Assembly (NCBI GenBank): GCA_934233735.1
Contig: CAKQGQ010000005.1
Coordinates: 24,778-88,777 of the forward strand
Origin: an uncultured Clostridia bacterium
GTDB taxonomy: Bacteria > Bacillota > Clostridia > Peptostreptococcales > Anaerovoracaceae
Direction of reading: 5' to 3'
Length of the DNA: 64,000 nucleotides
Made by a program: the position numbers and the translations under genes
Shown: piece after piece, positions 6,666 through 54,529 of the stretch
How positions within the stretch are numbered: position 1 is the stretch's first letter
How the letters are laid out: the number at the start of each line of letters is the position of its first letter
The notes under the pieces: model-generated
Told to the model about the DNA's origin: nothing
Database searches by the model: none
Seen by the model: the letters and a program-made list of their open reading frames with translations, nothing else

Positions 6666-6671
6666 TTCTAT

Positions 6672-6700: not shown

Positions 6701-6730
6701 ACAGCAGCAGAGCATTTCTGCTGTTTTTTT
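6699..6730 (+). terminator. Intrinsic terminator-like hairpin plus T-run upstream of the adhesin gene
   Basis: AAACAGCAG / CTGCTGTTT 9-bp stem followed by T7. Confidence 0.5.
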
Positions 6731-6826
6731 GTGCAGAAAACGGGAGGAAAGAAGAATGGGAAAAGCACGAGAGCCGACGAAAAGGAATCGAAACACAGAA
6801 AAATTACAGAGAGGAACAGAAAAAGC

Positions 6827-17533: not shown

Positions 17534-17674
17534 ATGAAAAACATCATATTAACAAAACAAGAGGAAAAAGTGACCTATTTTGTGGATGAGGAGACACTGA
17601 CGGAAAAAGAGCTCAAAAATCTTCTGAAGGAAGAGGAAGGAGAAGAAGAGGACGATGAAGAGCCAAGAGTTTAG
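17534..17674 (+). CDS. 46-aa acidic peptide
   Basis: ATG after AAGAGGTGAAG; its stop overlaps the ArdC-like start. It is below the track size cut-off. Confidence 0.35.
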   Translation: MKNIILTKQEEKVTYFVDEETLTEKELKNLLKEEEGEEEDDEEPRV

Positions 17675-19112: not shown

Positions 19113-19128
19113 AAAAAAGGAGGAGAGC

Positions 19129-22100
19129 ATGGCAATCAGAAAAGAAGACCTGGCAGCAGAAATAAAAAACACAATGCAAAATATCAATGATGAGCCGCAA
19201 ACGTTTCGCGATGTGCTGAAAAGCATTTCAAACACATACCGATATTCCTTTGAAAATCAGATGGCCATTTTTTCACAAAGAAAAGATGTCATGGCAGTTG
19301 CAAGCATGAATTTGTGGAATCGGCTGCACCGAAGTGTACAGAAAGGACATATTGGTATTCGCCTGCTAAACAGGGAAGACTTCAGCAGACAAATTTATGT
19401 ATGGGATATCAATGATACAGAAGGCGAAGAAATTAAGCTGTGGCAGCTTCAAGACGCAAAAGAGAATACCATTTCAAACGCTTTGCAGCGCATCTGCGGA
19501 GAAAAAGAAGAAAGTTTGGAAGAAAAAATCGGAAGAATTGTGAAAGAGGAAGCCGAAGAAATCTATATGCAAAGACTGGAAGGATTCACAAGGAGAAAAA
19601 AAGACAGCTTAACGGAAGAATACATTGCTGCAATCGGAGACGGATTCGAGGTTGCATCGAAAATGGCAGCCTACCTATGCAAGTTACGGTGTGGTTTGGT
19701 TACTGACCGTTTGCCGCAAGACGCATTTGGCTTTTATGATATTCCAAAGCCTATCCGGGAAGACGAAGATTATTTTTATATGCTTTTTTCATCTGCGAGC
19801 GAAGCCGCATCCGGAATGCTTTCCTTCATTTCACAGGAAGTAAAAAAGGAAATTGCAGAAAAAAGAAAAATCCAGTACAATAAAGAAAAAGAAGAGGAAA
19901 GGGGAAGAAACAATGAGAACGGCAAAGGAAATAACGGAGAAGAAGAGCTGGATGCAGATGGGCAGATACGGCCGCGCAAGGGAAGCATTTTTACAGAAAG
20001 AGAATCCGAAACTGTACAGACAGATGCTGGCGGAAGGCGTGATGCTGGAGTATCTGACGGACACGGACAAGAGCGCGCAGCAGATGAGGGAGAATATCAT
20101 GAGGCAGAAGATGAAAAAAGAGGGCGTGAGCGAAGAACTGAAAGCGCAGAACCCACAGGAATGGACAGCGAGGATGAATCAAATCATGATAGAAGCGGAC
20201 AGCATCGTCATGCGGGAAATGATTTTGACCTTATAAGCATAGACAACCATATCTGTAGGAAGATGGATGAATGGCAGCAGGATACTGCAAGCTATATGCT
20301 TGGACAATGCCTTGAGGATGAAGCTTTTTTCTACGTAGCGGCTCGTGAAACCATTGAGGACTTTCAGGGAAAATACACCTATGAATTTGACCGGATGCCG
20401 GAACGGGAAAGCGTGCAGGATGTCCATATTTCACATATTGCAGAACTTGCTATTGACCGAAACGAGGCGAAAGCAGAAGGATATGCTTTCCCACAAGGAA
20501 GAGGGACGGATTTTGATACCGTAGAAGTGCAGGCAGCCAGCCGAAGCAATTATAAAGGATACAATGTTTTCGCTAAATTTAACCGATACAGCAGGGATAA
20601 CGAGTATCAAATTTTAATGGGAAAACAAGAGAATTATCATGTCGAAGATGGAAAAGGGCTTTACGACAATCGTGATAATTCTCTTCTTTTTATCACAGAA
20701 AACCGGCGCATGTTCGGACTACTGGATGCCGGGCGCGGCTGGGTAAAAAGCCAGCAGGAGATGATTGACGTCGGAGCCTTTACAGAGGAAGACTACCGGG
20801 AGTATGCAGAACTTGAAAATGGAATTTTAAGTCATTTTGATAAGCTGCAGGACAAAATGTTTTCTATTGATATTGATAACGATGCGAGCGGAGAAGCGTT
20901 TATCTATCCGAAGTGGCGCAAAGAAAGAAATATTGACCTGATTGACCGTGCGATGCGCCTGATTGATGAATACTGCATGGAAGAATTCGAGCATCATGCG
21001 GACTTTTCCGAGCCGGAAGAAGTAGGCCTTGCATGCACGGAAACATCAGACGGAAAGCATGAAATCCAGGTTTCCTGCGATTTGCTTCATTTTGAAATCC
21101 GGACGCAAATTGACGGAGTGATGGTTGATAAAAGAAACTATGACACTTTGCAGGAACTGATCGATCAGGAACTTGTTTTCTTAGAATTTTCGGCATTAAC
21201 ACAGAATCTTCCGGAACATGTATGGAAGGATAAAAACCTTCGATACTCGGTTCTTGAAGTCTATGGACGAGGCGTATATGGCATATGGGACAATCAAGAA
21301 GAAGCCTTTATCAGCATCGATGAGAAGGATATCACGACCTTTGCGACAGAAGCAGAGGCGCTCGCTGCACTGAATCCGCCGAAAGATATTACACCGGAAC
21401 TGGTGGAAATCGGGGAACAGATAAGCTTTATAAATACGCAAAGCGTAAAACATACTGCGGATTTGATTACGAAGGATGATATTGACCAAATTCTGATGTA
21501 TGGAAGCAACGATCGGCTGGGAAGAGCAAAAATCTGTCTCGAATATATGAAAAGAAAATCTGCAGAAGAAATAATAGAAAGTCTCCCTTCTGTTTATAAA
21601 GGCAGTTACGGACTTAAAACGCTCGAAAAGGAAATCAGTGCAAGATATGAAAAAGAAGGAATATTCCTCTCAATCGGAGGAGGTTTCAATGAGAATGACT
21701 GTATACTTCTTTCATGGAGAATGGCGGAAGATAAAATCCGCAGCATGATAGAGAAAGGCACTTTTGCAAGCAGAAGCGATGTTGCCATGGCGCATGGATA
21801 TGAGAAAACTTTTACTGCTGAAAGCTTGATCGAAATGTGGCACGACCTATCGGATGAAGCAAAAATGCAGCACTATCTTCCGAGCATAGAGAAAATCGAA
21901 AATCAAAAGCTCGGAAGAGAAGGCAGTAAAGAAATTTTGGCAGAAAAATTCTATGATGAATTTTTCCTGCAGGTTATCACCGGAGAATATGAGCGTTTCT
22001 ATCAGGACTACCTGAAAAACCCAAATTTACTGCGATTCTCTTTTCACAAAACAGAGGCACTTCGTACGCATCTTAAGGAACTTAGCATACCGCTTACGCA

Positions 22101-25100
22101 GCTTTCGATGCAGGCGCAGGCCATGACAGAGCCTGCAAGTTTTATCACCCATGATGAAATCATGTACGCTTTGAAAGAGGGCAGTATGTTTGCCGGAGGA
22201 AAGTACCGCATTTATCGATATTTTCAGGAAAAGCACAGTCTGAAGGAAAAAGCCGCATTTCTTTCCGGAGAATATGGCACCGGTGGACATTCCTATGCTT
22301 TTGCAGGAGAAAATTGGAGTGAACAAAATCATGACAGTAAAGGCCTCGAATATCAAAAGTACGATTGTGAAACCATTAAACTTTCGTGGAGCCAGGCTGC
22401 ACATCGAATTGATGAACTGATACAAAGGGAAGACTATTTAACGGATGAGGAACTTCTTGAAATCGCAAAGGAAAAAGAGCTGCAGGAGGAAAATCCTGAA
22501 GACAAGGCAGAAGTGACAAACGCTGCTTCGGAAAGCAATTCGGCGGCAGAGGAACAAACTGCGGCCGAAAACTATAGCATTACAAACGAAGCGCTTGGAG
22601 ATGGAAGCAAAGCGGAAAAAATACGACGAAATCTTGACGCAATTCGGACGCTGAAAGAAATTGAAAGCAGAGGAACTTTAGCAACTTCATCCGAGCAGGA
22701 TATCTTGGCCGGATATGTGGGCTGGGGCGGAATCCCCGAAATTTTCGAGGAAAAGCATGCACAGCATCAAGAGCTGAAAAACTTGCTCACGGAAGAAGAA
22801 TATACGAGTGCAAGACAGAGCGTTCTTAGTGCGTATTATACCAAGCCGGTTGTCATCGATGCGATGTACGGGATGCTAAAAAACTTCGGCTTTGACGGTG
22901 GAAACCTGTTAGAACCATCTTGCGGCGTCGGAAACTTTTTCGGAAGACTGCCAAGTGCTATGCGCGAAAGCACGAATCTTTATGGAGTGGAACTTGACAG
23001 CCTTACCGCGCGGCTTGCACAGATGATTTATCCGCAGGCAAAGATTATCCAAGCAGGATATGAAGAAACAAATTTTGAAGACAATTCCTTTGATATTGCC
23101 ATCGGTAATGTACCGTTTGGTGATTTTGGAGTAAATGACCATGCCTATAAAGAAAACTTTTTGATTCATGATTATTTCTTTGCCAAAACGCTGGATAAGG
23201 TAAGAAGCGGCGGGCTGATACTGTTTATTACATCAAGCGGGACAATGGATAAGAAGTCATCAAAAGTCAGAGAGTACCTTGCAAAACGTGCGGATCTTCT
23301 CGGTGCGATTCGGCTTCCAAACAGCGCATTCTCGAATGCCGGAACAAAGGTTACAAGTGATATTTTGGTTCTGCAGAAAAAGGAGATTCCAAAAGAACCG
23401 GAGGAAAACCTTGCATGGCTGCATGTGGGAACCGATGAAAAGGGGCTTTCGTATAACCAATATTTCATTGAGCATCCGGAGATGATTGTCGGGACGATGC
23501 AGGAAGTAACCGGTCCGTATGGAAACGCTGCTGCCTGCATTCTTTCGGACCCGGAAAGACTGAAAGAAAAACTAACAGAAGCAGTAGAGAAAATAAACGG
23601 ACACTACAGCCCGATTGTTATCTTCGATGAAGATGAGGAAGAAACAGACAGTATCCCTGCAGATATTGCTATGCCGAGCTTTTCTTACTCGGTGAAGGAC
23701 GAAAAACTTTTTTACAAAGAAACATCCGTTATGTATCCGGTGGATAGGGGAAGCACGGTAAACGGAAGAATCGCAGGCATGATTAAAATACGGGAAAGCT
23801 TGCGCGAACTGATTCAGGCACAGATGGAAGATAAAGACGATGAAGAAATTCATGCGCTGCAGGAAAGACTTATGGGCATCTATCAGAGCTTTGTAAAAAA
23901 GCATGGTGCAGTCAGCAGCAGGGCGAATGCACTGGCATTTCGTGATGACAGCGCCTATCCGCTGATTTGCTCGCTTGAGGAGCTGGACGAGGAAGGCAAT
24001 GTAAAAAAGCTTGCAGATATTTTCCACAAACGAACCATCAGTGCAAAAAAAGAATACACAAGCGTGGCAAGTGCAAAGGATGCACTTGCTATTTCTTTGC
24101 GGGAAAAAGGATATGTGGACATTTCCTATATGCAAAGTCTTTATGATAAGAGCGAAAACGAAATTGTAACCGACCTTTCCGGTCAGATTTTCAGAAAACC
24201 GGATTTTGAGCAGGACGCCGAGCCGCAATATTTGACAAGAGATGAGTACCTGTCCGGAAATGTGCGGCGAAAACTTGCTGAAGCAAAAGCAGCAGATGAA
24301 GGGCTGGGAGGTATCTATCAGGAAAATGTTGCAGCACTTACCGAAGCACTTCCCAAGTGGCTGGACGGCTCTCAAATTGATGTCAGACTTGGCAGCACGT
24401 GGGTACCGCCGCATATTGTCGAGGAATTTATCGCAGAACTTTTAAATGTGCAAGGCTGGGGGCGTCAGTCGCTTTCTGTGACCTATAACAGTCTTTCGGG
24501 AACTTGGAATGTAGACGGCGGATATCGATGGTCAGTCGAAGCGACAAGGACTTACGGAACAAGTAAGGCAGATGCTTACCGCATTATCCGAGATACGCTC
24601 AATCTTCGAACGGTAAATATCACAGAAGAAGATTCTGAGGGAAGGCGTGTAACCAACCTGCAGGAAACAACACTTGCCTGTCAGAAGCAGGATATGATTA
24701 AGGATAAATTTAAGCAGTGGGTTTGGAAGGATATTGACAGACGAAAGGAACTTGAAGAAATCTATAATAAGCAGTTTAACAGCGTTGTTCCGAGAAAGTA
24801 TGATGGAAGTTTTCTTGACTTTCCGGGAATGAATGCGTCAATTACCTTAAAGCCACATCAAAAAGATGCGGTAGCACGGCAGATTTTCGGTGGGAATACA
24901 CTTCTCGCTCACACCGTCGGCGCAGGCAAAACTTTTGAGATGGCAACCGCTATCATGGAAAAGAAACGCCTTGGATTATGCCATAAAGCAATGCTTGTTG
25001 TGCCAAACCATCTGACAGACCAATGGGCAAATGAATTTTTACGGCTGTATCCAAACGCAAAAGTGCTTGCAACAACGAAAAAGGATTTTACACCAATGAA

Positions 25101-27327
25101 CCGAAAGCGTTTCTGCTCAAGGATTGCAACCGGAGATTACGATGCAATTATCATCGGGCATAGCCAGTTTGAAAGAATTCCGCTGTCGAAAGAAAGGCAG
25201 ACTGCGTTTATCAATCTGCAGATTACGGATATTGAAAAGGAAATTACGGTACTCAAAGAGATGCACGGCGAGAGAGTTTCCATTAAGCAGCTTGAGCTGA
25301 TGAAGAAAAAACTTGCTACAAAACTCCAAGCACTCAATGATGCAAGCGTCAAAGATAATACCGTAACCTTTGAAGAACTGGGGATTGATTTCCTTTGTGT
25401 GGATGAGGCGCACAACTACAAAAATCTCGCGCTAAACACGAAGATGAGTAATGTCGCAGGCATTTCCGGCGCGTCGGCAAATAAAGCTTATGATATGTTT
25501 GCAAAATGTAGATACCTGGACGAAATCACAGACGGATGCGGCATTACCTTTGCAACCGGAACGCCGGTATCAAACTCCATGGCAGAGCTGTATACCATGC
25601 AGCGCTACCTGCAGTATGATACGCTAAAGGAAATGAATCTGTTATCCTTTGATGCATGGGCATCAACCTTTGGCGAGACAGTAAGTGCATGGGAGCTGGC
25701 ACCGGAGGGGACGAAGTACAAGAGAAGAACGCGCTTTGCAAAATTCTTCAATCTTCCGGAACTTATGGGAAGCTTCTGCGAAGTTGCGGATATTAAGACC
25801 GCAGATATGCTGAATCTTGATACGCCGAATGTTGTGCAGGAGACGGTTACTGTGCCTGCTACCCAGGTGCAGCTTCAGACACTTCGAGAGATTGGAAAGC
25901 GCGCAGATGCAATCAGGGAAGGCAGTATCGATCCGTCGATTGACAATATGCTTAAGATTACAACGGACGGCAGAAAGCTTGCACTTGACGAACGCATTCT
26001 TTTGGGAGGAAGCGAACACCCGCTTGGAAAGACAAAGGTAGACTACCTGGTTGAAGCCGCAGCCGAGATTTATCACAGAACCGCAGAAAAGAAGTCAACA
26101 CAACTCATATTCTGTGATTTAAGCACGCCCAAAAGGGATGGCAGCTTTAGCATTTATGATGAAGTGAAGAAAGGACTGATTGCGCATGGTGTAGCGGAAG
26201 AAGAAATTGCATTTATGCATGACTATAACAGCGACAGTCAAAAAGAGAATGTCAGAAGAAAAGTACGTACCGGTGCGGTTCGGTTTCTTCTTGGAAGCAC
26301 GGCTCTCATGGGCGAGGGAATGAACGTGCAAAACAAGCTGATTGCCATTCATCATTTGGATGTACCGTGGCGTCCGAAAGACCTTGACCAAAGACAAGGA
26401 AGAATTGAACGTCAGGGAAATGAAAACGAAGAGGTATATGTATACCGCTATATTACAGCCAATACTTTTGATGCTTATTCCTGGCAGACACTTGAAACCA
26501 AACAGCGCTATATTTCGCAGATTATGACCAGTAAATCACCGGCGCGAAGCATGGAAGACATCGACGACACCTGTCTTGACTATGCCGCAACAAAATCACT
26601 TTGTACCGGAAATCCGAAAATCAAAGAGAAAATGGAACTTGAAAATGACATTTCGCAGCTGAAACTCTTAGAACAAAGTTATCACTCTGCGCAGATTCAT
26701 ATGCAGGAGGAGCTTTATCGGTCGTATCCTGAAAGCCTTGCAGCAAAACTGAAAGAACTGAAGCTTTGCGAGGAAGATAATGCCTTGTATCAAAAAAATA
26801 AAGGAGATAAGACTGTGCAGGTAGCAGATGCTGCTTTTACGAATCCTGATGCCGCAGGCACCGCACTGTTTGCACTTACTGCGAAGTACAAAAACGAACC
26901 GGGCTGGAAAAAGATTGGCTCCTATAAGGGCTTTGACATCAGCACAATGTTTGAGGACAGCTATTACAAGCTGCGTGTAAAGAATCCGGAAAAGAGCAGC
27001 GGTTACATCATCAAGCGAGGCGCGGATCCGGAGAAAATCGTACCTAATATTGATGAACTTTTTGAAGGCTACAGCGAGAAGATTTCAAAGCTGAAAGAAA
27101 CGATTGAAGGTCTGGAAAGAAACATGGAAAAACTGAAAAAGGAACTTGAAGTGCCGTTTGCGTATGCGAAAGAGCTTTCAGAAAAGGAGAAAAGGCTGGA
27201 AAGGCTCGATGAAGAACTTCTGCAAGAGCAGCAGGCAAATACGGCCGAAAGTGCAGAAGAAAAACTTCCTGAAAGCGAGGAAGAAGTGACCTATGAAAAA
27301 TGTGAGGACGAGGAATGGGATATATAG
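19129..27327 (+). CDS. Giant polyvalent protein: ArdC-N-like domain, uncharacterised LPD-type modules, N6-adenine DNA methyltransferase, SNF2/DEAH helicase, coiled-coil tail
   Basis: ATG at 19129 after AGGAGGAG.
- N-terminus YSFENQMAIFSQ...WNRLHRSVQKGHIGIRL is ArdC-N-like.
- Methyltransferase motif I is LEPSCGVGNFFG (about 22909) and motif IV is GNVPFG (about 23104).
- Helicase motif I is AHTVGAGKTF (about 24907), motif II is VDEAHNYKN (about 25399), and motif VI is QRQGRIERQG (about 26389).
- The frame is uninterrupted for 2732 codons. Confidence 0.88.
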   Translation: MAIRKEDLAAEIKNTMQNINDEPQTFRDVLKSISNTYRYSFENQMAIFSQRKDVMAVASMNLWNRLHRSVQKGHIGIRLLNREDFSRQIYVWDINDTEGEEIKLWQLQDAKENTISNALQRICGEKEESLEEKIGRIVKEEAEEIYMQRLEGFTRRKKDSLTEEYIAAIGDGFEVASKMAAYLCKLRCGLVTDRLPQDAFGFYDIPKPIREDEDYFYMLFSSASEAASGMLSFISQEVKKEIAEKRKIQYNKEKEEERGRNNENGKGNNGEEELDADGQIRPRKGSIFTERESETVQTDAGGRRDAGVSDGHGQERAADEGEYHEAEDEKRGRERRTESAEPTGMDSEDESNHDRSGQHRHAGNDFDLISIDNHICRKMDEWQQDTASYMLGQCLEDEAFFYVAARETIEDFQGKYTYEFDRMPERESVQDVHISHIAELAIDRNEAKAEGYAFPQGRGTDFDTVEVQAASRSNYKGYNVFAKFNRYSRDNEYQILMGKQENYHVEDGKGLYDNRDNSLLFITENRRMFGLLDAGRGWVKSQQEMIDVGAFTEEDYREYAELENGILSHFDKLQDKMFSIDIDNDASGEAFIYPKWRKERNIDLIDRAMRLIDEYCMEEFEHHADFSEPEEVGLACTETSDGKHEIQVSCDLLHFEIRTQIDGVMVDKRNYDTLQELIDQELVFLEFSALTQNLPEHVWKDKNLRYSVLEVYGRGVYGIWDNQEEAFISIDEKDITTFATEAEALAALNPPKDITPELVEIGEQISFINTQSVKHTADLITKDDIDQILMYGSNDRLGRAKICLEYMKRKSAEEIIESLPSVYKGSYGLKTLEKEISARYEKEGIFLSIGGGFNENDCILLSWRMAEDKIRSMIEKGTFASRSDVAMAHGYEKTFTAESLIEMWHDLSDEAKMQHYLPSIEKIENQKLGREGSKEILAEKFYDEFFLQVITGEYERFYQDYLKNPNLLRFSFHKTEALRTHLKELSIPLTQLSMQAQAMTEPASFITHDEIMYALKEGSMFAGGKYRIYRYFQEKHSLKEKAAFLSGEYGTGGHSYAFAGENWSEQNHDSKGLEYQKYDCETIKLSWSQAAHRIDELIQREDYLTDEELLEIAKEKELQEENPEDKAEVTNAASESNSAAEEQTAAENYSITNEALGDGSKAEKIRRNLDAIRTLKEIESRGTLATSSEQDILAGYVGWGGIPEIFEEKHAQHQELKNLLTEEEYTSARQSVLSAYYTKPVVIDAMYGMLKNFGFDGGNLLEPSCGVGNFFGRLPSAMRESTNLYGVELDSLTARLAQMIYPQAKIIQAGYEETNFEDNSFDIAIGNVPFGDFGVNDHAYKENFLIHDYFFAKTLDKVRSGGLILFITSSGTMDKKSSKVREYLAKRADLLGAIRLPNSAFSNAGTKVTSDILVLQKKEIPKEPEENLAWLHVGTDEKGLSYNQYFIEHPEMIVGTMQEVTGPYGNAAACILSDPERLKEKLTEAVEKINGHYSPIVIFDEDEEETDSIPADIAMPSFSYSVKDEKLFYKETSVMYPVDRGSTVNGRIAGMIKIRESLRELIQAQMEDKDDEEIHALQERLMGIYQSFVKKHGAVSSRANALAFRDDSAYPLICSLEELDEEGNVKKLADIFHKRTISAKKEYTSVASAKDALAISLREKGYVDISYMQSLYDKSENEIVTDLSGQIFRKPDFEQDAEPQYLTRDEYLSGNVRRKLAEAKAADEGLGGIYQENVAALTEALPKWLDGSQIDVRLGSTWVPPHIVEEFIAELLNVQGWGRQSLSVTYNSLSGTWNVDGGYRWSVEATRTYGTSKADAYRIIRDTLNLRTVNITEEDSEGRRVTNLQETTLACQKQDMIKDKFKQWVWKDIDRRKELEEIYNKQFNSVVPRKYDGSFLDFPGMNASITLKPHQKDAVARQIFGGNTLLAHTVGAGKTFEMATAIMEKKRLGLCHKAMLVVPNHLTDQWANEFLRLYPNAKVLATTKKDFTPMNRKRFCSRIATGDYDAIIIGHSQFERIPLSKERQTAFINLQITDIEKEITVLKEMHGERVSIKQLELMKKKLATKLQALNDASVKDNTVTFEELGIDFLCVDEAHNYKNLALNTKMSNVAGISGASANKAYDMFAKCRYLDEITDGCGITFATGTPVSNSMAELYTMQRYLQYDTLKEMNLLSFDAWASTFGETVSAWELAPEGTKYKRRTRFAKFFNLPELMGSFCEVADIKTADMLNLDTPNVVQETVTVPATQVQLQTLREIGKRADAIREGSIDPSIDNMLKITTDGRKLALDERILLGGSEHPLGKTKVDYLVEAAAEIYHRTAEKKSTQLIFCDLSTPKRDGSFSIYDEVKKGLIAHGVAEEEIAFMHDYNSDSQKENVRRKVRTGAVRFLLGSTALMGEGMNVQNKLIAIHHLDVPWRPKDLDQRQGRIERQGNENEEVYVYRYITANTFDAYSWQTLETKQRYISQIMTSKSPARSMEDIDDTCLDYAATKSLCTGNPKIKEKMELENDISQLKLLEQSYHSAQIHMQEELYRSYPESLAAKLKELKLCEEDNALYQKNKGDKTVQVADAAFTNPDAAGTALFALTAKYKNEPGWKKIGSYKGFDISTMFEDSYYKLRVKNPEKSSGYIIKRGADPEKIVPNIDELFEGYSEKISKLKETIEGLERNMEKLKKELEVPFAYAKELSEKEKRLERLDEELLQEQQANTAESAEEKLPESEEEVTYEKCEDEEWDI
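19913..20236 (+). CDS. tnpV: TnpV-family small protein, nested in the +1 frame inside the giant ORF
   Basis: 107 aa. GRYGRAREAFLQKENPKLYRQMLAEGVMLEYL...EGVSEELKAQNPQEWTARMNQIMIEADSIVMREMIL follows the TnpV pattern (G.WG....YL....P.LY..L..G.L..YL...AQ...EGVTEELKA....W...MN.I...AEEI...E.I). Own RBS AGGAAAGGGGAAG, and the stop falls at the family's natural C-terminus. Confidence 0.7.
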   Translation: MRTAKEITEKKSWMQMGRYGRAREAFLQKENPKLYRQMLAEGVMLEYLTDTDKSAQQMRENIMRQKMKKEGVSEELKAQNPQEWTARMNQIMIEADSIVMREMILTL

Positions 27328-27402: not shown

Positions 27403-27600
27403 ATGGAAAAGAAATACACATCAAAAGAGGTTCTTGCGATTTTGGAAAAAACCTTTCCTGAAAGCGAAGTTGATTTTCAGCCGGAGTTTTTGGATAACGC
27501 GGAATTTACACAAAAGCAGCTTGATAAAATCATTGAAAATTTTCCGGCTATTGAGGGGAATCTCCAAAAAAAGTATACCTATAACGGGTACAGTCTGTAG
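27403..27600 (+). CDS. Small hypothetical protein
   Basis: 65-aa ORF. Its RBS/start block is almost identical to that of the next gene. Confidence 0.5.
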   Translation: MEKKYTSKEVLAILEKTFPESEVDFQPEFLDNAEFTQKQLDKIIENFPAIEGNLQKKYTYNGYSL

Positions 27601-27617: not shown

Positions 27618-28022
27618 ATGGAATATATTTCAGGAATCCACGCACTGAATCTTCCGTGCGAGCTTGAGACCTGCGGAGACTGGCATACATCGGCGCTGCA
27701 ATGGAAAAAGCCTTTTGTACGAGAATCAAACGGCAGCCTTTTCGGTGATTACGGAATCGAAAAGAATAAGACGATACCGGAGCACGAGGAGCGATATTAT
27801 GCAGCAAACCACATCCGGGCATTGCTGGATCTCTTAGAAGAGGGGCGATTTTCCGTTGCGCAGGGGATGCGAGATGATTTTATCTGCAATGACAAATACG
27901 ACGAGGAGATCTTTGCGAAGGTATGGATGCTAAGAGGCTTGCCAAACTGGGAAAACATTGACCGTTTCATGCAGAAAGAATATTACCGAAAATGGAGAAA
28001 TTACAAGGAGAAGCATTCATGA
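27618..28022 (+). CDS. Hypothetical protein, putative partner (antitoxin position) of the AbiEii-like gene
   Basis: 134-aa ORF. Its stop overlaps the downstream ATG (ATGA). No wHTH/AbiEi signature recognised. Confidence 0.55.
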   Translation: MEYISGIHALNLPCELETCGDWHTSALQWKKPFVRESNGSLFGDYGIEKNKTIPEHEERYYAANHIRALLDLLEEGRFSVAQGMRDDFICNDKYDEEIFAKVWMLRGLPNWENIDRFMQKEYYRKWRNYKEKHS

Positions 28023-28753
28023 AGGATTGGAAAGAACTGCACGGAAAAGTCATTGATGACTTTTTGCTGTATCTGAATGAGAGGACAGACAATTTCATTC
28101 TCAAAGGAGGAACGGCACTTTTAGAATGTTATGGCCTTGACCGTTTTTCCGAAGATATTGATTTTGACGGAAAAGAACCGAATATCGAAGAATATGTTGC
28201 GGCATTTTGTGAGAAGAATCAGTATGATTATCGGGTTGCAAAAGATACGGACACCGTAAAGCGATATATGATTCACTATGGAAACGAAAGAAAACCGTTA
28301 AAAGTTGAGACTTCGTTTCGTAGAAAGCAGATTCCGCAAGAAGAGACAACAAAGATTAACGGCGTGAATGTCTACCGGATTAATCCGCTTTGCACCATGA
28401 AAGTCAATGCCTATATGGGAAGAGATAAGCTTCGTGATTTATATGATGTTGCTTTTATCTGCGGCCACTATTTTGATGAGCTGCAGCCGACCACGAAAGC
28501 GCTTCTTCAAAATGCATTGATGTACAAAGGAATCGAACACTTCGATTACATTGTCAATCAGGAAAAAGACGAACTCATCGACGAAAACAGACTGGCAGAG
28601 TCTTTTCTGAATATGTTTGAACAATTCGATTTACTTTACACCGAAGAAGAAAAAGAAATTCTTCGTGATGTGGCGAAAGCTTCCGAAAATGTACGGACAA
28701 GAGAGAAAGCGAATCTCAAGAATAAGAAAAAAAATTTTGACTTGGAAATTTAA
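28019..28753 (+). CDS. Nucleotidyltransferase, AbiEii/AbiGii toxin family (DUF1814-like)
   Basis: ILKGGTALLECYGLDRFSEDIDFD is the family's NTase signature (GG..L....R.S.DIDF); length is about 244 aa. Confidence 0.75.
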   Translation: MKDWKELHGKVIDDFLLYLNERTDNFILKGGTALLECYGLDRFSEDIDFDGKEPNIEEYVAAFCEKNQYDYRVAKDTDTVKRYMIHYGNERKPLKVETSFRRKQIPQEETTKINGVNVYRINPLCTMKVNAYMGRDKLRDLYDVAFICGHYFDELQPTTKALLQNALMYKGIEHFDYIVNQEKDELIDENRLAESFLNMFEQFDLLYTEEEKEILRDVAKASENVRTREKANLKNKKKNFDLEI

Positions 28754-28777
28754 ACGAAACTGAATAAGCATGAAGAA

Positions 28778-28803
28778 AGTGAGGAACACCCTCACTTTTT
28801 TTC
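28778..28803 (+). terminator. Intrinsic terminator
   Basis: AGTGAGG-aacac-CCTCACT followed by T7. Confidence 0.7.
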
Positions 28804-28821
28804 GTGGAAAGGAAAGGGACT

Positions 28822-31800
28822 ATGAAAGAAAAAAAGGAAGCCTCCTCCTATTTAAGAGAGGCGCTCGAACAAAATTTTCCGCAATATCAAGAAGATAAAA
28901 ACGCCTTCGGTATTGCAGCGGATGCTTTAGAAGAATATGAAAGAAAGGGAATCTTGGGTTATGAGGATATTGTGGAGCATTTTCTCCATGACGGAAGATT
29001 GCAGTATGAGGGCTTTCCGGTTAGAGATGCACATTCCCTTGCACTGCTTCTGCAGACCTTTCGGAATGTACAATTTGAGACCTTTCGCATGGTATATACG
29101 AAAGGGGATACCATTGCCGCAATTACCGGAGTGGAAAGCAGGCTGCCGCATTTATCCTTTACCATGCCGGAAAAGAGCATCTCAAAAGGATTTTATAACA
29201 TACAAAGACGAATGGAGCGGCTGGGGGCGGATGGATTTTATATGGTACATAATCATCCTACCGGAGATGTGCTTCCGTCCGCTGACGACACCAATGAGAC
29301 GATGAGATTTGCGCAAAATCTTCCGGGCTTTCGCGGGCATATCATTTTAGATCATACAAAATATTCCGTGCTTGATGAAAACGGTGTAATCGGTATTTAC
29401 GATATTCCCGAAGATTATCAGAATCCGCTGTATTACGAGACCGAAACATTCTTAATCGGAACAAAAGTCAGGAATTCAGATGAAGTGGCAGCCTTTTTTG
29501 ACCACTTAAATCCGGCACCGGAGCGCAGCCTTCTTGTATTAACCACGGCAAAGGGAAGCATCCGAACTTTTGAGGAAGTAAGTAACAAAGTAATTTTGCA
29601 TGACAAAAATTTCAAAAATTATATCCGAAATGAAATGGTCCGAAATGGCTGCACGCATGCATTTCTTGCAACACAAAGCGAAGAAATCTATGATAGCTGC
29701 CGACCACTTGTCATCGATCGATACTTGATGGACGCAGTGTTTTTAGATGAAATCGGCATGGAAAGCGTAAATCGCTGGATGCATGAGCATAATGTCGAGC
29801 GAAATAAAGAAATTGAATGGGCAGGACTTCATTTAGAGAAGATGCACAGAGACAAAAATAACAGCGGAAAAATGCCCACATCACTTTTGCGTGAAGAAAT
29901 AAGTCCTTATGAATTTGAACAGGAGGTTAGAAGCATGAATATGACAGCGGGAGAATTTTTAGAAGAAATGCGTGTCTATTTTGCAGGTGAAAAGGAAGAA
30001 ATGTCAACAGACGGGCTTATTTTCACAGATGAGGTAGGTGCAGATATCGAGCTGCAAGTATCCAATCTTAAAGATTGTTACTGGGAGATATTTGAGAGTT
30101 CACAAGCGACTTTATATCGACTTTCTTCAGGAAATGAGGTTGCAAGGTACGACGCAGTTTCCTACAAATACTTGGATGCGAGCGGATGGCATCGTTCCTC
30201 CGAAATTACAGATGATATTGACGCTGCAATTAGGATGATAGAAGGACTTTTATACTGGGGAGAAGCCAATCCAGTGGATGGGAACAGTGTCGAATATATG
30301 GAAGGTAAGCCGATTCCCAATATTTTTAATATAAGGGAAGATTATATGCATACGGATGAATACCCATCGGAGAAAGAAATCGCAAAAAAACATTTAGAAA
30401 TGCTACGAGAAGCGGACGAAAGGAATGATATAAAAATGCCGTCGCTAAGTCATTCAAACGATGTTGATAATGTAGAAGTTTCCATGCGTCTTGCAGAAAC
30501 GCTCAAAGGCTGCTATTGGAAAACTTACGATGATGGCTCCGGCAGCCTTCGGAGACTTCAAACGGATACCGTAATCTTGGGATATAATCTGCATCCGGTT
30601 GATAGCGGATATGATGAATATGAAGATGCAAGAGGATGGCATGACTTTGAACGCAGCGAAGACTTTAGGCTTGCTTTGGAAAACCTTGTGACAGATGGAA
30701 TTGTAAGCCCGATGGATCATGGAGCAAACGATTTTGATTTAAGAAGTAATGAATTTGAACAAGAGGAGGTTAGAAGTATGAATATGACACCGGGAGAATT
30801 TTTAGAAGAAATGCGTGCTTATTTTGCAGGCGAGAAAGAAGCGATGTCAACCGATTCGCTTGTTTATATAGACCATGAAAGCGGTCTGGGGCAGACACTG
30901 CTGTTATCCGGCATCAAAGGCTGCTATTGGCATCAGATTGAGGATGAAGTGGCAACCTTGTATCGTCTTTCCACCGGCGAAGAAATGGGCACTTGCTTCG
31001 CCGGTGAGCGGCAGGAGTATCGCGATAGAAATGGGTGGCATAGTATACTTCCTGATGTTGATACCCCGGGCGAATCGGACGATCCTACATTTAATTATAT
31101 TTCATATACGATAGAAGAGATGATGCAGTCATTGGAACTGGATATTCAGGCTGGTGATGTAATCCCGATGGATAAAACTGCAGAGGAACATTTTATAGAA
31201 CTCTTAAAAGACTATGACCAAAAAAATGATACGAAAAAGAAACCTCTTCGCTATAAGAATGAGGAGGACCTTACTGTCTCTATACAGCTTGCCAAAACAA
31301 TGAAAGGATGCTACTGGCAATCCTTTGACGACGGAAGTGGTTCGCTTAGAAGACTGGAAGGAAACAGCACCATTTTAAGATATGATGCGATTTCGGAATA
31401 TCGGGATGCTACCGGATGGCATGGCTTTGAACGCGGCACAGACTTTAAGCTTGCATTGGAAAAACTTGTGACAGATGGGATTGCAAGCCCGATGGATCAT
31501 GGTTCCACTATGTTTGATGTTCGTAATGAGATGAGCATGGAAGAATTAAATCGAATTTTAGAAGCGCATGAAAAGTGGCTGCGTGGGGAAGCGGGCGGAC
31601 GGCAGGCAGATTTAAGAAGTACCAGCTTGCAGGGCGCCGATTTATCAGAACGTAATTTAGAACGCATAAATCTGATTGGTGCCGATCTGTATGGAGCAAA
31701 CCTTGCGTTTACGAATCTGCAGGGAGCAAAGCTGTTCTCCGCCGACCTTACAAATGCGGATTTGACGAATGCCAACTTGGAAAAGGCAGGTCTCGCATAT

Positions 31801-32787
31801 GCAACCGTTCAGGGTGCAAACTTCAAAGGTGCGAATCTGCAGAACACAAGTCTGCTGGAAACGATAGGTCTTGAGGAGGCACAAGGTGTTTCGCAAGATA
31901 AGCTCAAAGAAGAAATCGCAGTGCTCAAAGATAAGATTGAGCAAAGGGAGCTTGACAAGTTTTATTCTGATTCTTGGGAGCAGTCTGCACAAATTCGCAG
32001 TGACATCGAAACATTACAAAGCAAGCTGGAGAATCTCACGGAATCCGAGAAACGACAGTCTGCGAAGCGACTTTTTATCGATATGGACGGAACGCTTTGT
32101 GAGGGAGAGGAGATAGACGATATGAATATGGAAAATAAAAACATAGAAAATGCGGAGCTTTTGCAGCAGTTTCAAAGCGCAGCTACACCCAAAATGCAAA
32201 CTGTTTTTCAGATGATGAACGGACATTTGACATCAAATCCGCAAGCAGCTGTAGAAAAAAGGGAGTATGGTATGCAGGATGTATGTAAAGCAGAACTGCT
32301 TTATCCTGTAAGCAATACAGAGAATAAAGTAATTAAGCTCACGGCAACGCAGGATGCTGCCCAGGCACTTTCAAAGTATAACGAAGGAGACATTATCACA
32401 TTTGTCGGCATTCCAACAAATGACGGATATAAAATTTGCAGAATGGATGATGGAACCGTCTTTGCAAAACAGCAAAAGATGTTATATGACTTTACGATGC
32501 GCGGTGAGATTCCTGAAAATGATAGGAAAAGAGAACTTGCGCTTTCCGATATTAAGGAAGGATTTAAGAATCTAAGTTATGAAGAGAAATTTAAACTTGT
32601 CCTGGAAGAAGAGGTGGACTGCCATGACAATGAAGACTTGAAGGAAGAACTATGGGAAAGTTTTAGGGACAACGATTCTTATCTCGGATTTTTCGGAAAA
32701 GACGAAGTAGCGGAGCTGATAAAACGAAGAGATCGTTTCCTAGAAATTCAAGCAGATACGGAAAAAGACGGAGGGATGGAACTTTGA
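28822..32787 (+). CDS. Polyvalent protein: RadC-like JAB/JAMM domain, four copies of an unrecognised GCYW...GWH domain, pentapeptide-repeat segment, coiled-coil and C-terminal domain
   Basis: JAMM motif MVHNHPTGDVLPSADD (about 29248). Tandem internal duplication at 29908-31530. About 17 A(D/N)LXX pentapeptides (ADLRSTSLQGADLSERNLERINLIGADLYGANLAFTNLQGAKLFSADLTNADLTNANLEKAGLAYATVQGANFKGANLQNTSL, about 31600-31860). Confidence 0.8.
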   Translation: MKEKKEASSYLREALEQNFPQYQEDKNAFGIAADALEEYERKGILGYEDIVEHFLHDGRLQYEGFPVRDAHSLALLLQTFRNVQFETFRMVYTKGDTIAAITGVESRLPHLSFTMPEKSISKGFYNIQRRMERLGADGFYMVHNHPTGDVLPSADDTNETMRFAQNLPGFRGHIILDHTKYSVLDENGVIGIYDIPEDYQNPLYYETETFLIGTKVRNSDEVAAFFDHLNPAPERSLLVLTTAKGSIRTFEEVSNKVILHDKNFKNYIRNEMVRNGCTHAFLATQSEEIYDSCRPLVIDRYLMDAVFLDEIGMESVNRWMHEHNVERNKEIEWAGLHLEKMHRDKNNSGKMPTSLLREEISPYEFEQEVRSMNMTAGEFLEEMRVYFAGEKEEMSTDGLIFTDEVGADIELQVSNLKDCYWEIFESSQATLYRLSSGNEVARYDAVSYKYLDASGWHRSSEITDDIDAAIRMIEGLLYWGEANPVDGNSVEYMEGKPIPNIFNIREDYMHTDEYPSEKEIAKKHLEMLREADERNDIKMPSLSHSNDVDNVEVSMRLAETLKGCYWKTYDDGSGSLRRLQTDTVILGYNLHPVDSGYDEYEDARGWHDFERSEDFRLALENLVTDGIVSPMDHGANDFDLRSNEFEQEEVRSMNMTPGEFLEEMRAYFAGEKEAMSTDSLVYIDHESGLGQTLLLSGIKGCYWHQIEDEVATLYRLSTGEEMGTCFAGERQEYRDRNGWHSILPDVDTPGESDDPTFNYISYTIEEMMQSLELDIQAGDVIPMDKTAEEHFIELLKDYDQKNDTKKKPLRYKNEEDLTVSIQLAKTMKGCYWQSFDDGSGSLRRLEGNSTILRYDAISEYRDATGWHGFERGTDFKLALEKLVTDGIASPMDHGSTMFDVRNEMSMEELNRILEAHEKWLRGEAGGRQADLRSTSLQGADLSERNLERINLIGADLYGANLAFTNLQGAKLFSADLTNADLTNANLEKAGLAYATVQGANFKGANLQNTSLLETIGLEEAQGVSQDKLKEEIAVLKDKIEQRELDKFYSDSWEQSAQIRSDIETLQSKLENLTESEKRQSAKRLFIDMDGTLCEGEEIDDMNMENKNIENAELLQQFQSAATPKMQTVFQMMNGHLTSNPQAAVEKREYGMQDVCKAELLYPVSNTENKVIKLTATQDAAQALSKYNEGDIITFVGIPTNDGYKICRMDDGTVFAKQQKMLYDFTMRGEIPENDRKRELALSDIKEGFKNLSYEEKFKLVLEEEVDCHDNEDLKEELWESFRDNDSYLGFFGKDEVAELIKRRDRFLEIQADTEKDGGMEL
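29908..31530 (+). repeat. In-frame tandem duplication (units 29908-30747 and 30748-31530), each unit containing two GCYW...GWH subdomains
   Basis: The unit starts EFEQEVRSMNMTAGEFLEEMRVYFAGEKEEMSTD / EFEQEEVRSMNMTPGEFLEEMRAYFAGEKEAMSTD and the unit ends LVTDGIVSPMDHG / LVTDGIASPMDHG are nearly identical at nucleotide level. The interiors have diverged. Confidence 0.85.
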
Positions 32788-35384
32788 GAAGTGATAATAT
32801 CAAACACACCATGAAATTAAACCGCTTTTTGGGAAGCTGGTTTGTTGTGATTACGCTTTGCCTGGCAATCGACCTCATTCTACTTGCCGGGCTTGACTAC
32901 ATTATGAATCTTGTTGCCGCAATCCCTGATATGATACAGAAAGGTGCTACAAGCTACAACTATATCGATGCGGCAAACTTCTTGCCGCACTTTGGCAGAT
33001 ATAAGTGGAGCCTAAAAATCATATATCTCCTATGCATTCTTGTTCTGATTGGTGCTAATGTGGTCAAAGGCTATGGAATTCGTGTCAGTTATGCGGACAA
33101 GGAAGTGAATTATGGACAGAAGGGAACACGACGCTGGACGACGACAGAGGAAAAGAAAAAGCAGTATCGTGCAATTCCGCTGAAAGACGAATTCTATCCC
33201 GGAGAATCCGGGACGATCATCTCCCGAATCGGAAACAAACTGTATATCGATGTCGGTGGCTCAAATCAGCTCATCATCGGAACAACCCGTTCCGGTAAAG
33301 GCGAGATGTATGTGGTACCGAGCATCGATGTGATTACAAGAACTGCACTTATGAAAGACCGCAAAAGCATGATTATTACAGACCCGAAGCCGGAACTATA
33401 TAAAATGGCAAAGTATATTTTAGAAAAACGCGGCTATGAAGTAATTTTCATCAATCTTGCGGATCCAATTCACTCTGCAGGATATAACCCACTGTACCTT
33501 GTCATTGAATACTATAAAAAGGGTGAAGTGGATAAATCCAAAATGGCGGCAAGAAGCTTTGCCTATGCGATTTTTAATGCAGACCCGATGCAGGAAATGA
33601 TTTGGAAAAATACTGCGACCGACCTTTTTACGGCGCTTATCGTGGCGGTCACCAGCGACTGCCTGGAAGAAGATAAATTACTGAATGAAAAAAGGCGAAG
33701 AGCCTGGATTGAAAAAAAGCGGGCATATCGTGAGCTTTCAGCAGAAGAACAGGGGAACGCCGCAAAGCATTATCGGATGATTTATGAGCAAGAGGTTTTT
33801 GCCATAAAAACAAAATACAGAGAGCTTTCCGAAGAAGGAATTACCTTTAAATCGGCTGTTATGGAAAATGAAATGAGCGAAATTGACATGTTCCTCAAGG
33901 GGAATGTGTTTTTTATTCCTGACGATGTACCTTTTTGCGAAATCCATCCAAATGAAAAAAAGGTGAATTGCTATTCTTGTCTGAATTTTTTCCGCGAGCT
34001 TGCTGACACGAAAGCCCTGGAAGCTGCGGGAAGTGATGCGGAGCGTGAGAAAATTGCAGAGACGGCACTTGATGAATACTTTAATAATCGTCCGCCGCTT
34101 GACTATGCGAAATCACTCTATCAGGAAATCAAAGGAACCGGGGACAGAACCAAAGGCAGCGTATATATCAATATGCAGTCTGCGCTTTCCATTTTCTCGC
34201 TGGACAGTATTGCTATGCTAACAGCAGAAAATGATATTGATATTGAAAAAATCGGCTATGGAGATAAGCCGGTAGCACTGTTCATTGGGATTCCGTCGCA
34301 GGACAAGTCCAATCACTTTTTAGCAACAACCTTGATTACGCAGATTTATCAGTATCTATTTAATTTGACCAGTATCCGCAAAGAAACTGCAGGGACGCAA
34401 GGGAAACTCAAGCGTAAAGTGAAATACATCTTGGACGAATTTGGAAATTTACCGCCAATCGAAGAATTTCCAAGCTTTGTTACGGTTGGTCTTGGTCTTG
34501 GCATCAGTTTTGATATTTATGTTCAGGCACTTGCACAGCTTGAGGAAAAATATAAGGATTCGTACAACACGATTATGGAAAATATGGCAAATCAGATTTA
34601 CATTAAATCCATTTCCAATGAAACGGCAGAATCCTTTTCAAAATCGCTGGGAAATACAACGGTCATTGAAATACAGCGAAGCGGCTCGCGCTTTTCGACC
34701 AATAAGCATTTTACCGAGACGCCAATCGAACGGCCGCTGATGTATCCGCAGGAACTTCAGGAGCTGAAAGAGGGTGAGTGCGTTATCCTTCGAGGCATGG
34801 ACAGAAAAGATAAGCTTGGTGTGGACATCAAGAGCTATCCGATTATTAACGAGGTTGCAGATGAACTGAATACGTCCGAAAAACTGTGGGTGCTGCTTAC
34901 TTCTTTTTATCATGTGCTCATAAAGAAGCAGCCGGAATATATTCGACTGGAAAATAGACAGGCAAGCCTATCCGAAGATATTCAGATTCGAATGAATCTG
35001 AAAAAGAGAGAAAAGGGAACGCAGCTATATTACCGCTATCAGTATCTATCCGATACTTTCCCGAATCCGGATGAAATCTTCATTGAGGACATCAATAACG
35101 AGAGCAGGGAGCATCTTGACTACACCAAGATGGTTTACGACCCGCAGGAGGTAATTGAAAACTTGGAAGAAGAACGAAAGGGTACAAGGATGCTGCAGCT
35201 TAAGAACGTAACAAACAGACACGAAATCATTATGCTGCTTGTTCAGATTGATAAAGACTGGAGAAGAAACCTTGACATTTCCGAAAAGGATACCTTATCG
35301 CGGATCACGGATGTGCTGCAGCATGCAGAAATTGATAAAACATTAAAAGAAAAAGTTATGCAGGAGCTTGAAAAGGCAGCATAA
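32784..35384 (+). CDS. virD4: Type IV coupling protein (VirD4/TraG/TraD family)
   Basis: N-terminal TM helices, Walker A GTTRSGKGE, Walker B KYILDEFGNLP. TTG start after GGAGGGA overlaps the upstream stop (alternative ATG at 32811). Confidence 0.85.
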   Translation: MRSDNIKHTMKLNRFLGSWFVVITLCLAIDLILLAGLDYIMNLVAAIPDMIQKGATSYNYIDAANFLPHFGRYKWSLKIIYLLCILVLIGANVVKGYGIRVSYADKEVNYGQKGTRRWTTTEEKKKQYRAIPLKDEFYPGESGTIISRIGNKLYIDVGGSNQLIIGTTRSGKGEMYVVPSIDVITRTALMKDRKSMIITDPKPELYKMAKYILEKRGYEVIFINLADPIHSAGYNPLYLVIEYYKKGEVDKSKMAARSFAYAIFNADPMQEMIWKNTATDLFTALIVAVTSDCLEEDKLLNEKRRRAWIEKKRAYRELSAEEQGNAAKHYRMIYEQEVFAIKTKYRELSEEGITFKSAVMENEMSEIDMFLKGNVFFIPDDVPFCEIHPNEKKVNCYSCLNFFRELADTKALEAAGSDAEREKIAETALDEYFNNRPPLDYAKSLYQEIKGTGDRTKGSVYINMQSALSIFSLDSIAMLTAENDIDIEKIGYGDKPVALFIGIPSQDKSNHFLATTLITQIYQYLFNLTSIRKETAGTQGKLKRKVKYILDEFGNLPPIEEFPSFVTVGLGLGISFDIYVQALAQLEEKYKDSYNTIMENMANQIYIKSISNETAESFSKSLGNTTVIEIQRSGSRFSTNKHFTETPIERPLMYPQELQELKEGECVILRGMDRKDKLGVDIKSYPIINEVADELNTSEKLWVLLTSFYHVLIKKQPEYIRLENRQASLSEDIQIRMNLKKREKGTQLYYRYQYLSDTFPNPDEIFIEDINNESREHLDYTKMVYDPQEVIENLEEERKGTRMLQLKNVTNRHEIIMLLVQIDKDWRRNLDISEKDTLSRITDVLQHAEIDKTLKEKVMQELEKAA

Positions 35385-52650: not shown

Positions 52651-52947
52651 ATGAAGTCATTATATATCCGAGGAATGGATGAAACTCTATACCTAACACT
52701 TTCAGAACAAGCGGAAAAGATGGAATTGAGTTTGCCGGAGCTTGCGCGAAGAGTACTTGCGAATTATGCAGCGGCTCCTGCGCTTGTCGCAATTGACCAT
52801 AAGTATCGTGTTTTCGTGGATGAAGTGCAGGAAGTCTTGGCACTTGATTTTGCTAATTTGAAAAACTTAACAGAAGAACTTGCGCTTATGCTGCAAACAT
52901 CACAGGAGATGATGCAGGAGCTGATGGAGGAAACACATGGCAAGTAA
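52651..52947 (+). CDS. MobC/RHH-like relaxosome accessory protein
   Basis: MKSLYIRGMDETLYLTLSEQAEKMELSLPELARRVL is a beta-strand/helix/helix CopG-like pattern. It overlaps the relaxase start. Confidence 0.55.
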   Translation: MKSLYIRGMDETLYLTLSEQAEKMELSLPELARRVLANYAAAPALVAIDHKYRVFVDEVQEVLALDFANLKNLTEELALMLQTSQEMMQELMEETHGK

Positions 52948-54403: not shown

Positions 54404-54529
54404 TTTTTATCTAAACAAAACAAAGAATCCAAGAAAGGCAGCTTTTATTGCAGAATGCATTTTTGGAGAGCAGTACGAGAACATAATTCAGCGGTGGCTT
54501 GAGGCATATGGAAAAAGTGTGCTTTAAAC

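Follow-up and report, generated by a model that had tools for sequence, protein, structure and literature searches.

A RadC-headed polyvalent protein assembled from in-frame gene cassettes in a Clostridia conjugative element

What kind of protein does a conjugative element encode directly ahead of its coupling protein, and how is such a protein put together? The question is raised by one gene in a 64,000-nucleotide (nt) stretch of DNA from an uncultured Clostridia bacterium (Anaerovoracaceae; contig CAKQGQ010000005.1, positions 24,778 to 88,777), hereafter the window, whose own numbering we use throughout. A MobL relaxase, a VirD4-type coupling protein, a VirB4-like ATPase, a hydrolase, ParA/ParB and ArdC show the window to be an integrative conjugative element, resident in a gut bacterium that is probably a Firmicute. 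The gene in question encodes a polyvalent protein of 1321 amino acids (aa) with an isoelectric point (pI) of 4.6, and its 3966-nt frame is intact, in agreement with a preliminary description of the locus made from its sequence.

28822–32787, plus strand: polyvalent protein gene, open frame, 1321 aa; start shared by relatives that are 74–95% identical

The N terminus, MKEKKE, is common to all close relatives. We find that the protein is a series of cassettes, joined at former gene starts and fused in frame behind a tandem of JAB domains. This anatomy and the cassette mode of evolution that goes with it we hold with high confidence. The fuller statement, that the protein is an establishment or counter-defence polyvalent factor of the conjugative element, function included, is to our minds evenly balanced.

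The head of the protein is formed by two consecutive domains:

28999–29406, plus strand: JAB domain 1, RadC type with full motif (Pfam RadC; profile match to 2qlc)
29419–29826, plus strand: JAB domain 2, degenerate RadC-like fold by model, with no metal ligands (AlphaFold2 (AF2) model and Foldseek)

Domain 1 carries the JAMM motif HNHPTGDVLPSADD, comprising H143, H145, S153 and D156, with E86 upstream. All five residues are invariant across seven homologues and align to RadC 2qlc, the crystal structure that is matched by a profile of those homologues (E 9e-5). Pfam RadC (PF04002) scores 25.3 bits with the N-terminal fragment and 22.6 bits with the whole protein against a cut-off of 22.1, a small margin over profile positions 57–96 only, and the 1321-aa protein scores far below the cut-offs of the NCBIfam RadC models. 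Motif and Pfam score together bear out the RadC-like JAMM domain, and with it the assignment to a RadC/JAB-headed polyvalent type, that had been proposed for this gene. Domain 2 is recognized by fold: by sequence, hhalign of half 1 against half 2 gives E 0.11, and what the profile search of PDB returns, at E 0.075, is an unrelated protein. An AF2 model of residues 200–335 (seven-sequence alignment; mean predicted local confidence (pLDDT) 83, predicted template-modelling score (pTM) 0.78) returns chains of RadC 2qlc as the top five Foldseek matches in PDB (E 1.2e-5 to 1.7e-4, probability 1.00, TM 0.50–0.67), with proteasomal MPN subunits, archaeal JAMM1 and deaminases below them. The HNH position of domain 2 holds T-Q-S, so that metal cannot be bound there; the domain is a pseudo-enzyme and the head a JAB/pseudo-JAB tandem. 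The arrangement recalls, as an analogy only, the eukaryotic MPN+/MPN− pairs Rpn11/Rpn8 and CSN5/CSN6. The pair also occurs free-standing (P0043, 352 aa, which carries PF04002) or fused straight to an NT5C domain (P0044). RadC is among the domains seen only in the polyvalent proteins of conjugative elements, where it has been argued to act on nucleic acids or nucleotides (Iyer et al., PMC5512222).

Behind the head lie four homologous copies, in the order A-B-A-B, of an acidic domain of ~120 aa:

29932–30297, plus strand: module A1, residues 371–492, CYW at 419 and GWH at 455 (53 bits to a hidden Markov model (HMM) of B copies only)
30367–30738, plus strand: module B1, residues 516–639, CYW at 564 and GWH at 605 (the copy modelled with AF2)
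30775–31191, plus strand: module A2, residues 652–790, CYW at 701 and GWH at 738 (47 bits to the B-only HMM)
31168–31518, plus strand: module B2, residues 783–899, CYW at 830 and GWH at 865 (sequence homology)

Module A2 has an insert of ~20 residues ahead of its last helix. The four GCYW...GWH copies in two tandem units were already apparent in the preliminary description, and the homology of all four is confirmed here. An alignment of 20 sequences covering all module types gives a B1 model with pLDDT 92.3 and pTM 0.87, in which an N-terminal helix is followed by seven consecutive β-strands and a C-terminal helix. Foldseek finds no neighbour for this model in either PDB or BFVD. The best E is 0.49 in PDB, where the noise-level matches (TM at most 0.29) are to WD40 blades and the C-terminal domain of MotA, and 0.12 in BFVD. 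None of the 20 members has a Pfam match, LPD families included, and no match was found in NCBIfam, PHROGs, PADLOC or a PDB profile search; the module is thus as unassignable, by sequence or by fold, as had been stated. SUKH/SMI1-type immunity domains, WG/MORN-like β-hairpin repeats and the 'double wing' of the MotA C-terminal domain were considered as relatives and set aside as Foldseek noise (E at least 0.1, TM at most 0.36).

The family is also rare. An exhaustive hmmsearch of 1.84 billion cluster representatives (clusters at 50% identity) returned only 10 proteins at E ≤ 1e-3, nine of which belong to this family. Among 72,556 plasmids, megablast with the polyvalent gene found no match, and tblastn found only pentapeptide matches and one JAB, with none for the modules; two scans of 185,579 species-representative genomes and a scan of viral contigs yielded no relative. 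Six loci were found in metagenomes, one of them labelled human gut, and a Hadza/Nepal stool sample is among the contigs found by protein look-up. The relatives in databases are unnamed or 'hypothetical'. Per 100 residues the modules have a net charge between −6 and −15. Their conserved residues (C, Y, W, L, R, D, G, E, G, P and D; in GWH the His varies) have the look of a core, hydrophobic or aromatic, with salt bridges, and no catalytic constellation is seen among them. The module is an autonomous unit, since P0039 is a 140-aa protein with a single copy. Elsewhere it occurs as an A-B pair (P0035), ahead of NT5C (P0036 and P0037) or behind an ArdC-N/metallopeptidase head (P0030), and in P0038 the module order relative to the JAB domain differs.

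How the repeats arose can be read from their boundaries. Unit 1 (29908–30747, residues 363–642) and unit 2 (30748–31530, residues 643–903) form an in-frame tandem duplication with the limits first described. A codon alignment of the two gives nucleotide identities of 90–93% over the first ~30 codons and 85–87% over the last ~30, versus 45–60% in the interior; the ends are therefore more alike than the interiors, as claimed earlier, 'nearly identical' being too strong a term for them. At the unit ends, 13–16 of the 15–18 codons that specify an identical residue are identical codons, and in the KGCYW...GSLRRL core the figure is 5/15. Protein-level selection alone would not homogenize synonymous sites, and their homogenization at the ends only supports the gene conversion or recombination there that had been suggested. 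Recent duplication, suggested alongside it, is unlikely for whole units: the A1/B1 and A2/B2 types are each orthologous across diverged elements, so that only the joints are homogenized. The ArdC-headed P0030 carries the A2/B2 types.

The joints themselves have the form of translation starts:

29922–29937, plus strand: cassette joint 1, in-frame GGAGG, 8 nt, ATG (M372); sequence identical to that of the true start region of gene P0023 in loci L003, L004 and L014
30765–30780, plus strand: cassette joint 2, in-frame GGAGG, 8 nt, ATG (M653); joint sequence

A-type cassettes begin with ...GAACAGGAGGTTAGAAGCATGAATATG... (GGAGG, 8 nt, ATG; M372 and M653), and a third, weaker joint (GGAGA...ATG) stands ahead of M1101. 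In L003, L004 and L014 the joint sequence is the genuine start of the 815-aa gene P0023, preceded by an intergenic region with a terminator hairpin, with only 25 codons open upstream. The motif GGAGGTTA[GA]AAG[CT]ATGAA marks the starts of X- and A-type cassettes in the 11 loci where it was found (window included), among them the one that directly follows the ArdC head in L002 and L015. Within the polyvalent gene, in-frame GGAGG-(4–10 nt)-ATG occurs at joints only; ~27 kb of other long open reading frames (ORFs) in the window contain it once, at what is probably the true start of a 2742-aa gene (ATG at 19129, GGAGG in front). Compared with its relative L001, the window protein is without a 105-aa cassette, 'X', and the insertions and deletions between the two fall exactly at a repeated joint of 27 nt. 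Each joint is a former gene start whose Shine-Dalgarno sequence and ATG are now read through in frame. Recombination at these conserved joints, about 100–200 nt long, reshuffles, duplicates and removes cassettes, and gene conversion holds the joints alike.

The same economy of gain and loss is seen across about 50 relatives, for which a motif-based table gives at least 12 architectures with 1–5 modules. Examples (PRP denotes the pentapeptide cassette described below) are:

JAB-A/B-NT5C-Cterm, 885 aa, the simplest form
JAB-A-B-NT5C-Cterm
JAB-X-B-NT5C-Cterm
JAB-X-B-A-B-NT5C-C-Cterm
JAB-(X)-A-B-A-B-PRP-NT5C-(C)-Cterm
X-B-A-B-NT5C-tail
ArdC-N/MPTase-A-B-PRP
B-NT5C-JAB...
A-B alone
C-tail

The pentapeptide cassette always stands behind an A-B pair. 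Cassette X (~105 aa, ERDAYGYTYEDMMPL...IFGIE..DW; L001 9114–9428, with relatives in P0005, P0017 and P0023) starts with the same Shine-Dalgarno and ATG joint and has no Pfam match. No described example of this domain combination was found, and the 2017 polyvalent survey (PMC5512222) is without pentapeptide repeats, in support of the earlier remark that the combination was not recognized as a described one.

Towards its C terminus the window protein has a deletion scar and a final region:

32068–32121, plus strand: deletion scar of an NT5C domain (a 5'-deoxynucleotidase of HAD type), 18 residues in which CEGEEIDD follows immediately on motif I, DMDGTL (alignment to L001)
32122–32784, plus strand: C-terminal region, residues 1101–1321, a β-rich part and then a helical tail (LSYEEKF...), starting at the third, weaker joint (M1101)

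Nearly all relatives have an NT5C domain (PF06941, 29–31 bits) after a helical linker. Against L001, ~447 nt are missing in frame at 32096/32097, with an overlap of 2 nt only, and the resulting scar (DMDGTL|CEGEE) is unique to the window protein among the about 50 relatives. The window protein has no PF06941 match in Pfam and only motif I of the HAD core remains; with about 149 residues deleted, the remnant cannot be active. The tail motif at the extreme C terminus is common to module/NT5C proteins without a JAB domain; as L[ST]YE[DE]KF...GFF it occurs in P0023, P0036, P0037 and P0040, whose architectures are otherwise different, and it might be a shared tail for addressing or interaction. Two 221-aa C-terminal genes (P0056 and P0058) that might have been taken for a free-standing version of this cassette are artefacts; in L009 (1200–3000) a relative is apparently split into genes of 199, 587 and 221 aa through runs of N in the scaffold.

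A deletion of this kind raises the prospect that the whole gene is a decaying mosaic, a recombination product heading for pseudogene status whose repeats are neutral by-products of unequal crossing-over. In keeping with decay, the NT5C domain has been destroyed, constraint on the modules is relaxed, and the exact protein is present in the protein collection with no gene record in the contig index. Against it, the 3966-nt frame has remained intact, the modules are predicted with confidence to be foldable, the same architecture (NT5C aside) is present in several independent metagenomes, and in 8/9 segments the comparison with two relatives gives a ratio of non-synonymous to synonymous substitution rates (dN/dS) well below 1. 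We regard decay of the gene as a whole as very unlikely. The values themselves are uneven: 0.05–0.06 for JAB domain 1 and 0.05–0.07 for the coupling protein, versus 0.17–0.47 for the modules and pentapeptide segment (the dN/dS of 2.0 for A1 against L001 comes from 13 substitutions only, 1.5 synonymous and 11.5 non-synonymous). The variable middle thus evolves several-fold faster at the protein level, a pattern compatible with either conflict-driven change or relaxed constraint.

Between the modules and the scar lie a pentapeptide-repeat segment and a linker:

31531–31860, plus strand: pentapeptide-repeat cassette, an N-terminal cap helix (residues 904–928) and 17 pentapeptides (residues 929–1013) (Pfam Pentapeptide E 7e-17)
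31861–32067, plus strand: putative helical or coiled-coil-like linker, residues 1014–1082 (judged from sequence alone)

The repeat run is mildly acidic and keeps an unbroken register from residue 929 to 1013. It scores 61 bits with PF00805 (cut-off 20.2), and solved pentapeptide proteins in PDB match it at E 5e-21 to 1e-13. The count of about 17 consecutive A(D/N)LXX pentapeptides given in the preliminary description is accordingly correct, the 17 being uninterrupted. That description went on to see in them a DNA mimic of Qnr/MfpA type, and it is worth asking whether the segment could protect or inhibit gyrase, topoisomerase or restriction enzymes in this way. The pentapeptide fold is certain at the sequence level, the segment is mildly acidic, and the helical stalk behind it could dimerize it. 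A small pentapeptide gene ~45% identical to the cassette (214 aa; L007 5538–6182, in the P22-like record NZ_CP043906.1) lies between the anti-restriction gene ral and superinfection-exclusion genes (sieB), in an early-left operon that also has an anti-RecBCD gene; its place beside ral and sieB is a circumstantial lead in the same direction. However, Qnr and MfpA family models give 13–21 bits versus cut-offs of 240–500 bits, and QnrB1 and MfpA are among the weakest PDB matches (E 5e-5 and 5e-3), whereas cyanobacterial-type proteins, the generic pentapeptide proteins that are the segment's closest relatives, reach 1e-16 to 5e-21. Seventeen pentapeptides make about 4.25 coils, roughly half a Qnr or MfpA monomer. 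Established structures of MfpA and Qnr have 8–10 coils, and many pentapeptide proteins have roles unrelated to DNA. A helix of about 4 coils is too short to mimic the gyrase-bound DNA segment, and Qnr loops are not evident. The Qnr/MfpA assignment is not supported; beyond the fold itself and the circumstantial lead just named nothing favours it, and we hold a DNA mimic of this type to be quite improbable. Literature searches for an anti-defence role of pentapeptide repeats in plasmids or phages brought up nothing specific. The linker is conserved in relatives with the pentapeptide cassette, the ArdC-headed P0030 included.

The gene's immediate neighbours bear on its function:

27618–28753, plus strand: AbiEi/AbiEii pair, directly upstream (PADLOC AbiEi E 2e-63, AbiEii E 3e-75)
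28769–28806, plus strand: terminator-like hairpin separating AbiEii from the polyvalent gene, with an A-run, a 16-bp stem and a T-run (predicted fold)
32784–35384, plus strand: coupling protein of VirD4/TraG type (Pfam T4SS-DNA_transf E 3e-48)

What had been called a toxin-like nucleotidyltransferase pair upstream proves to be AbiEi and AbiEii; a conserved 65-aa ORF (27403–27600) precedes it. Membership of this adjacent abortive-infection or toxin–antitoxin system, for instance as a sensor or extra effector, might be suggested by the position of the polyvalent gene directly downstream on the same strand and by the retention of that adjacency in several relatives. Yet the protein has no PADLOC match, and the strong terminator-like hairpin stands between (predicted at −19.5 kcal/mol, z = −5.0, with 0/200 shuffles equally stable; a near-identical hairpin lies ahead of the free-standing homologue in L003). 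In L005 two unrelated small genes occupy the AbiEii position, so the slot is variable, and in L003 the module protein has no AbiE neighbour. Such membership we find scarcely credible.

At its other end the polyvalent gene is tied to the transfer genes. The reported overlap of its stop with the coupling-protein start holds: the TTG start overlaps the TGA stop (TTGA), with its GGAGG 8 nt upstream inside the polyvalent gene, and the identical 4-nt overlap is present in L001, L005 and L006. The block from methylase-helicase to coupling protein is conserved in L001 and L006. This translational coupling, with position kept in all three loci, would suit a donor-side accessory factor, one that serves the coupling protein or relaxosome as adaptor or regulator and whose modules are protein–protein interaction repeats, and not an effector at work in the recipient; so would the second type of element (L003 and L002), in which the module protein adjoins the MobL relaxase operon. 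A stoichiometric machine part would be unusual in varying as freely as this protein does in cassette number and order, with NT5C, pentapeptide, X and JAB coming and going, and its RadC, NT5C and (in P0030) ArdC domains are of the enzyme and anti-restriction types typical of polyvalent effectors (PMC5512222). A purely donor-side role is for these reasons unlikely in our estimation.

The wider gene order points towards establishment. From the left the window contains ParA/ParB, a 2519-aa surface protein, ArdC, a 2742-aa methylase-helicase, AbiEi/AbiEii and the polyvalent gene; the coupling protein, VirB4-like ATPase, an M23/glucosaminidase hydrolase, a topoisomerase, DUF5688 and the MobL relaxase follow, and further right an IS30-like transposase and then branched-chain amino-acid transporter genes of chromosomal type. 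ArdC (ArdC-N and MPTase-PolyVal, 17655–19112) overlaps the start of the 2742-aa ORF (19099–27327), whose N6-methylase/Eco57I and SNF2/ResIII/Helicase_C domains are DarB-like in make-up and which is the second giant polyvalent protein of the window. A Gram-positive conjugative element with an anti-defence island of MTase, darB and abiEii-abiEi has been described (Samuel et al., PMC11541004). The preliminary description read the gene's place as the one expected of a protein delivered to, or acting early in, the recipient; for an establishment role the only support is the association with the ArdC/DarB-like/AbiE island. The polyvalent protein would be produced together with the coupling protein; its JAB head would be the enzymatic part, processing a nucleic-acid or nucleotide substrate, and the acidic modules and pentapeptide helix would offer surfaces that bind host proteins or act as decoys for them. 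Internal starts, retained at the joints, may add N-terminally truncated products of 950 and 669 aa, perhaps also of 221 aa. Function, targets and internal initiation are all deductions from the architecture and its setting, and we hold each of these steps with much less confidence than the account as a whole.

Several points weigh against this account. Its functional part is reached by inference, no translocation signal was identified in the polyvalent protein, and a claim to an 'early' or 'leading' location would call for the origin of transfer (oriT) and the polarity of transfer. The window copy, having no NT5C domain, may be a variant already in partial decay. No mechanism is suggested by the conserved residues of the module, which look structural; the raised dN/dS is still <1 and may reflect relaxed constraint and not conflict; and the internal Shine-Dalgarno and ATG sites could be conserved solely through their location in recombination joints. 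The family, at 10 clusters (50% identity), is also so small that it need not be of general importance. A bolder extension of the establishment or counter-defence account would make the module a new fold by which host defence proteins are inhibited or decoyed in modular fashion, and the joints a 'cassette array inside one ORF', reshuffled by recombination and giving nested products of 1321, 950, 669 and perhaps 221 aa, with each cassette available fused or free. That combination is tentative, and we doubt that it is right in full.

The remaining genes of the element were surveyed in passing. The 2519-aa protein (6602–14161) has T-Q ester-bond and SpaA prealbumin-like domains and is probably the element's surface adhesin, aiding mating-pair formation. 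The MobL relaxase (gene 52937–54403; region 52937–55654) is followed by the IS30-like transposase (HTH_38 and rve). Further on come a gene for a non-specific endonuclease (58284–59396) and the branched-chain amino-acid ABC transporter genes (60642–63910 region), and the element's right-hand limit probably falls somewhere between about 56 and 60 kb.

Polyvalent proteins are regarded as the tools of a mobile element during its first minutes in a new host, and most of their domains are uncharacterized. The module, which belongs to a small family of gut conjugative elements, is a concrete target here for structure determination and binding-partner screens, and the JAB/pseudo-JAB tandem could help to define the role of the RadC domain. 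The locus also displays a mode of assembly in which entire genes, ribosome-binding sites included, become fused in frame and gene conversion then holds the joints alike, so that cassettes can be gained, lost and swapped. If internal initiation is real, the annotation of such giant ORFs would have to change.

Comparison with known systems places each part. Like RadC (2qlc), domain 1 has the HNHPxG...PS..D motif with an upstream Glu, and the model of domain 2 has the RadC fold; unlike RadC, the window protein has two domains in tandem, the second without any metal ligand, and no sign was detected in it of the N-terminal helix-hairpin-helix region that canonical RadC has. With the topoisomerase-protection proteins Qnr, MfpA and AlbG the pentapeptide segment shares its repeat type and presumably the same right-handed quadrilateral β-helix; it differs in scoring far below the family thresholds, in having half the length and in being embedded in a 1321-aa protein, and neither a Qnr-type dimerization module nor Qnr loops were recognized in it. 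The 5'(3')-deoxyribonucleotidases of NT5C/YorS type (PF06941; PHROG 2643) are represented in the relatives by a HAD domain between the linker and the C-terminal domain, of which the window protein keeps motif I.

The closest comparison is with the polyvalent proteins as a class (Iyer et al. 2017, PMC5512222), in whose survey the word 'pentapeptide' is absent and 'nucleotidase' occurs once, in a discussion of ParB domains. Like them, the window protein is large, multi-domain and encoded by a conjugative element; several unrelated domains are fused in it, and the architecture varies among close relatives. It has one of the enzymatic heads listed for the class (RadC, or ArdC-N and MPTase in P0030) joined to domains of unknown function, and its gene lies beside anti-restriction genes and the transfer apparatus. 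It differs in a repeated ~120-aa domain that matches no Pfam family, LPD included, in the modelled JAB and pseudo-JAB tandem of its head, and in joints that retain ribosome-binding sites. The polyvalent protein of a conjugative element is already known as a kind. New are the module family, whose confident model is without a structural neighbour, the JAB/pseudo-JAB tandem that the model of domain 2 indicates, the presence in polyvalent proteins of a recruited pentapeptide cassette and a recruited NT5C domain, and clear evidence for the in-frame fusion of gene cassettes with their ribosome-binding sites retained.

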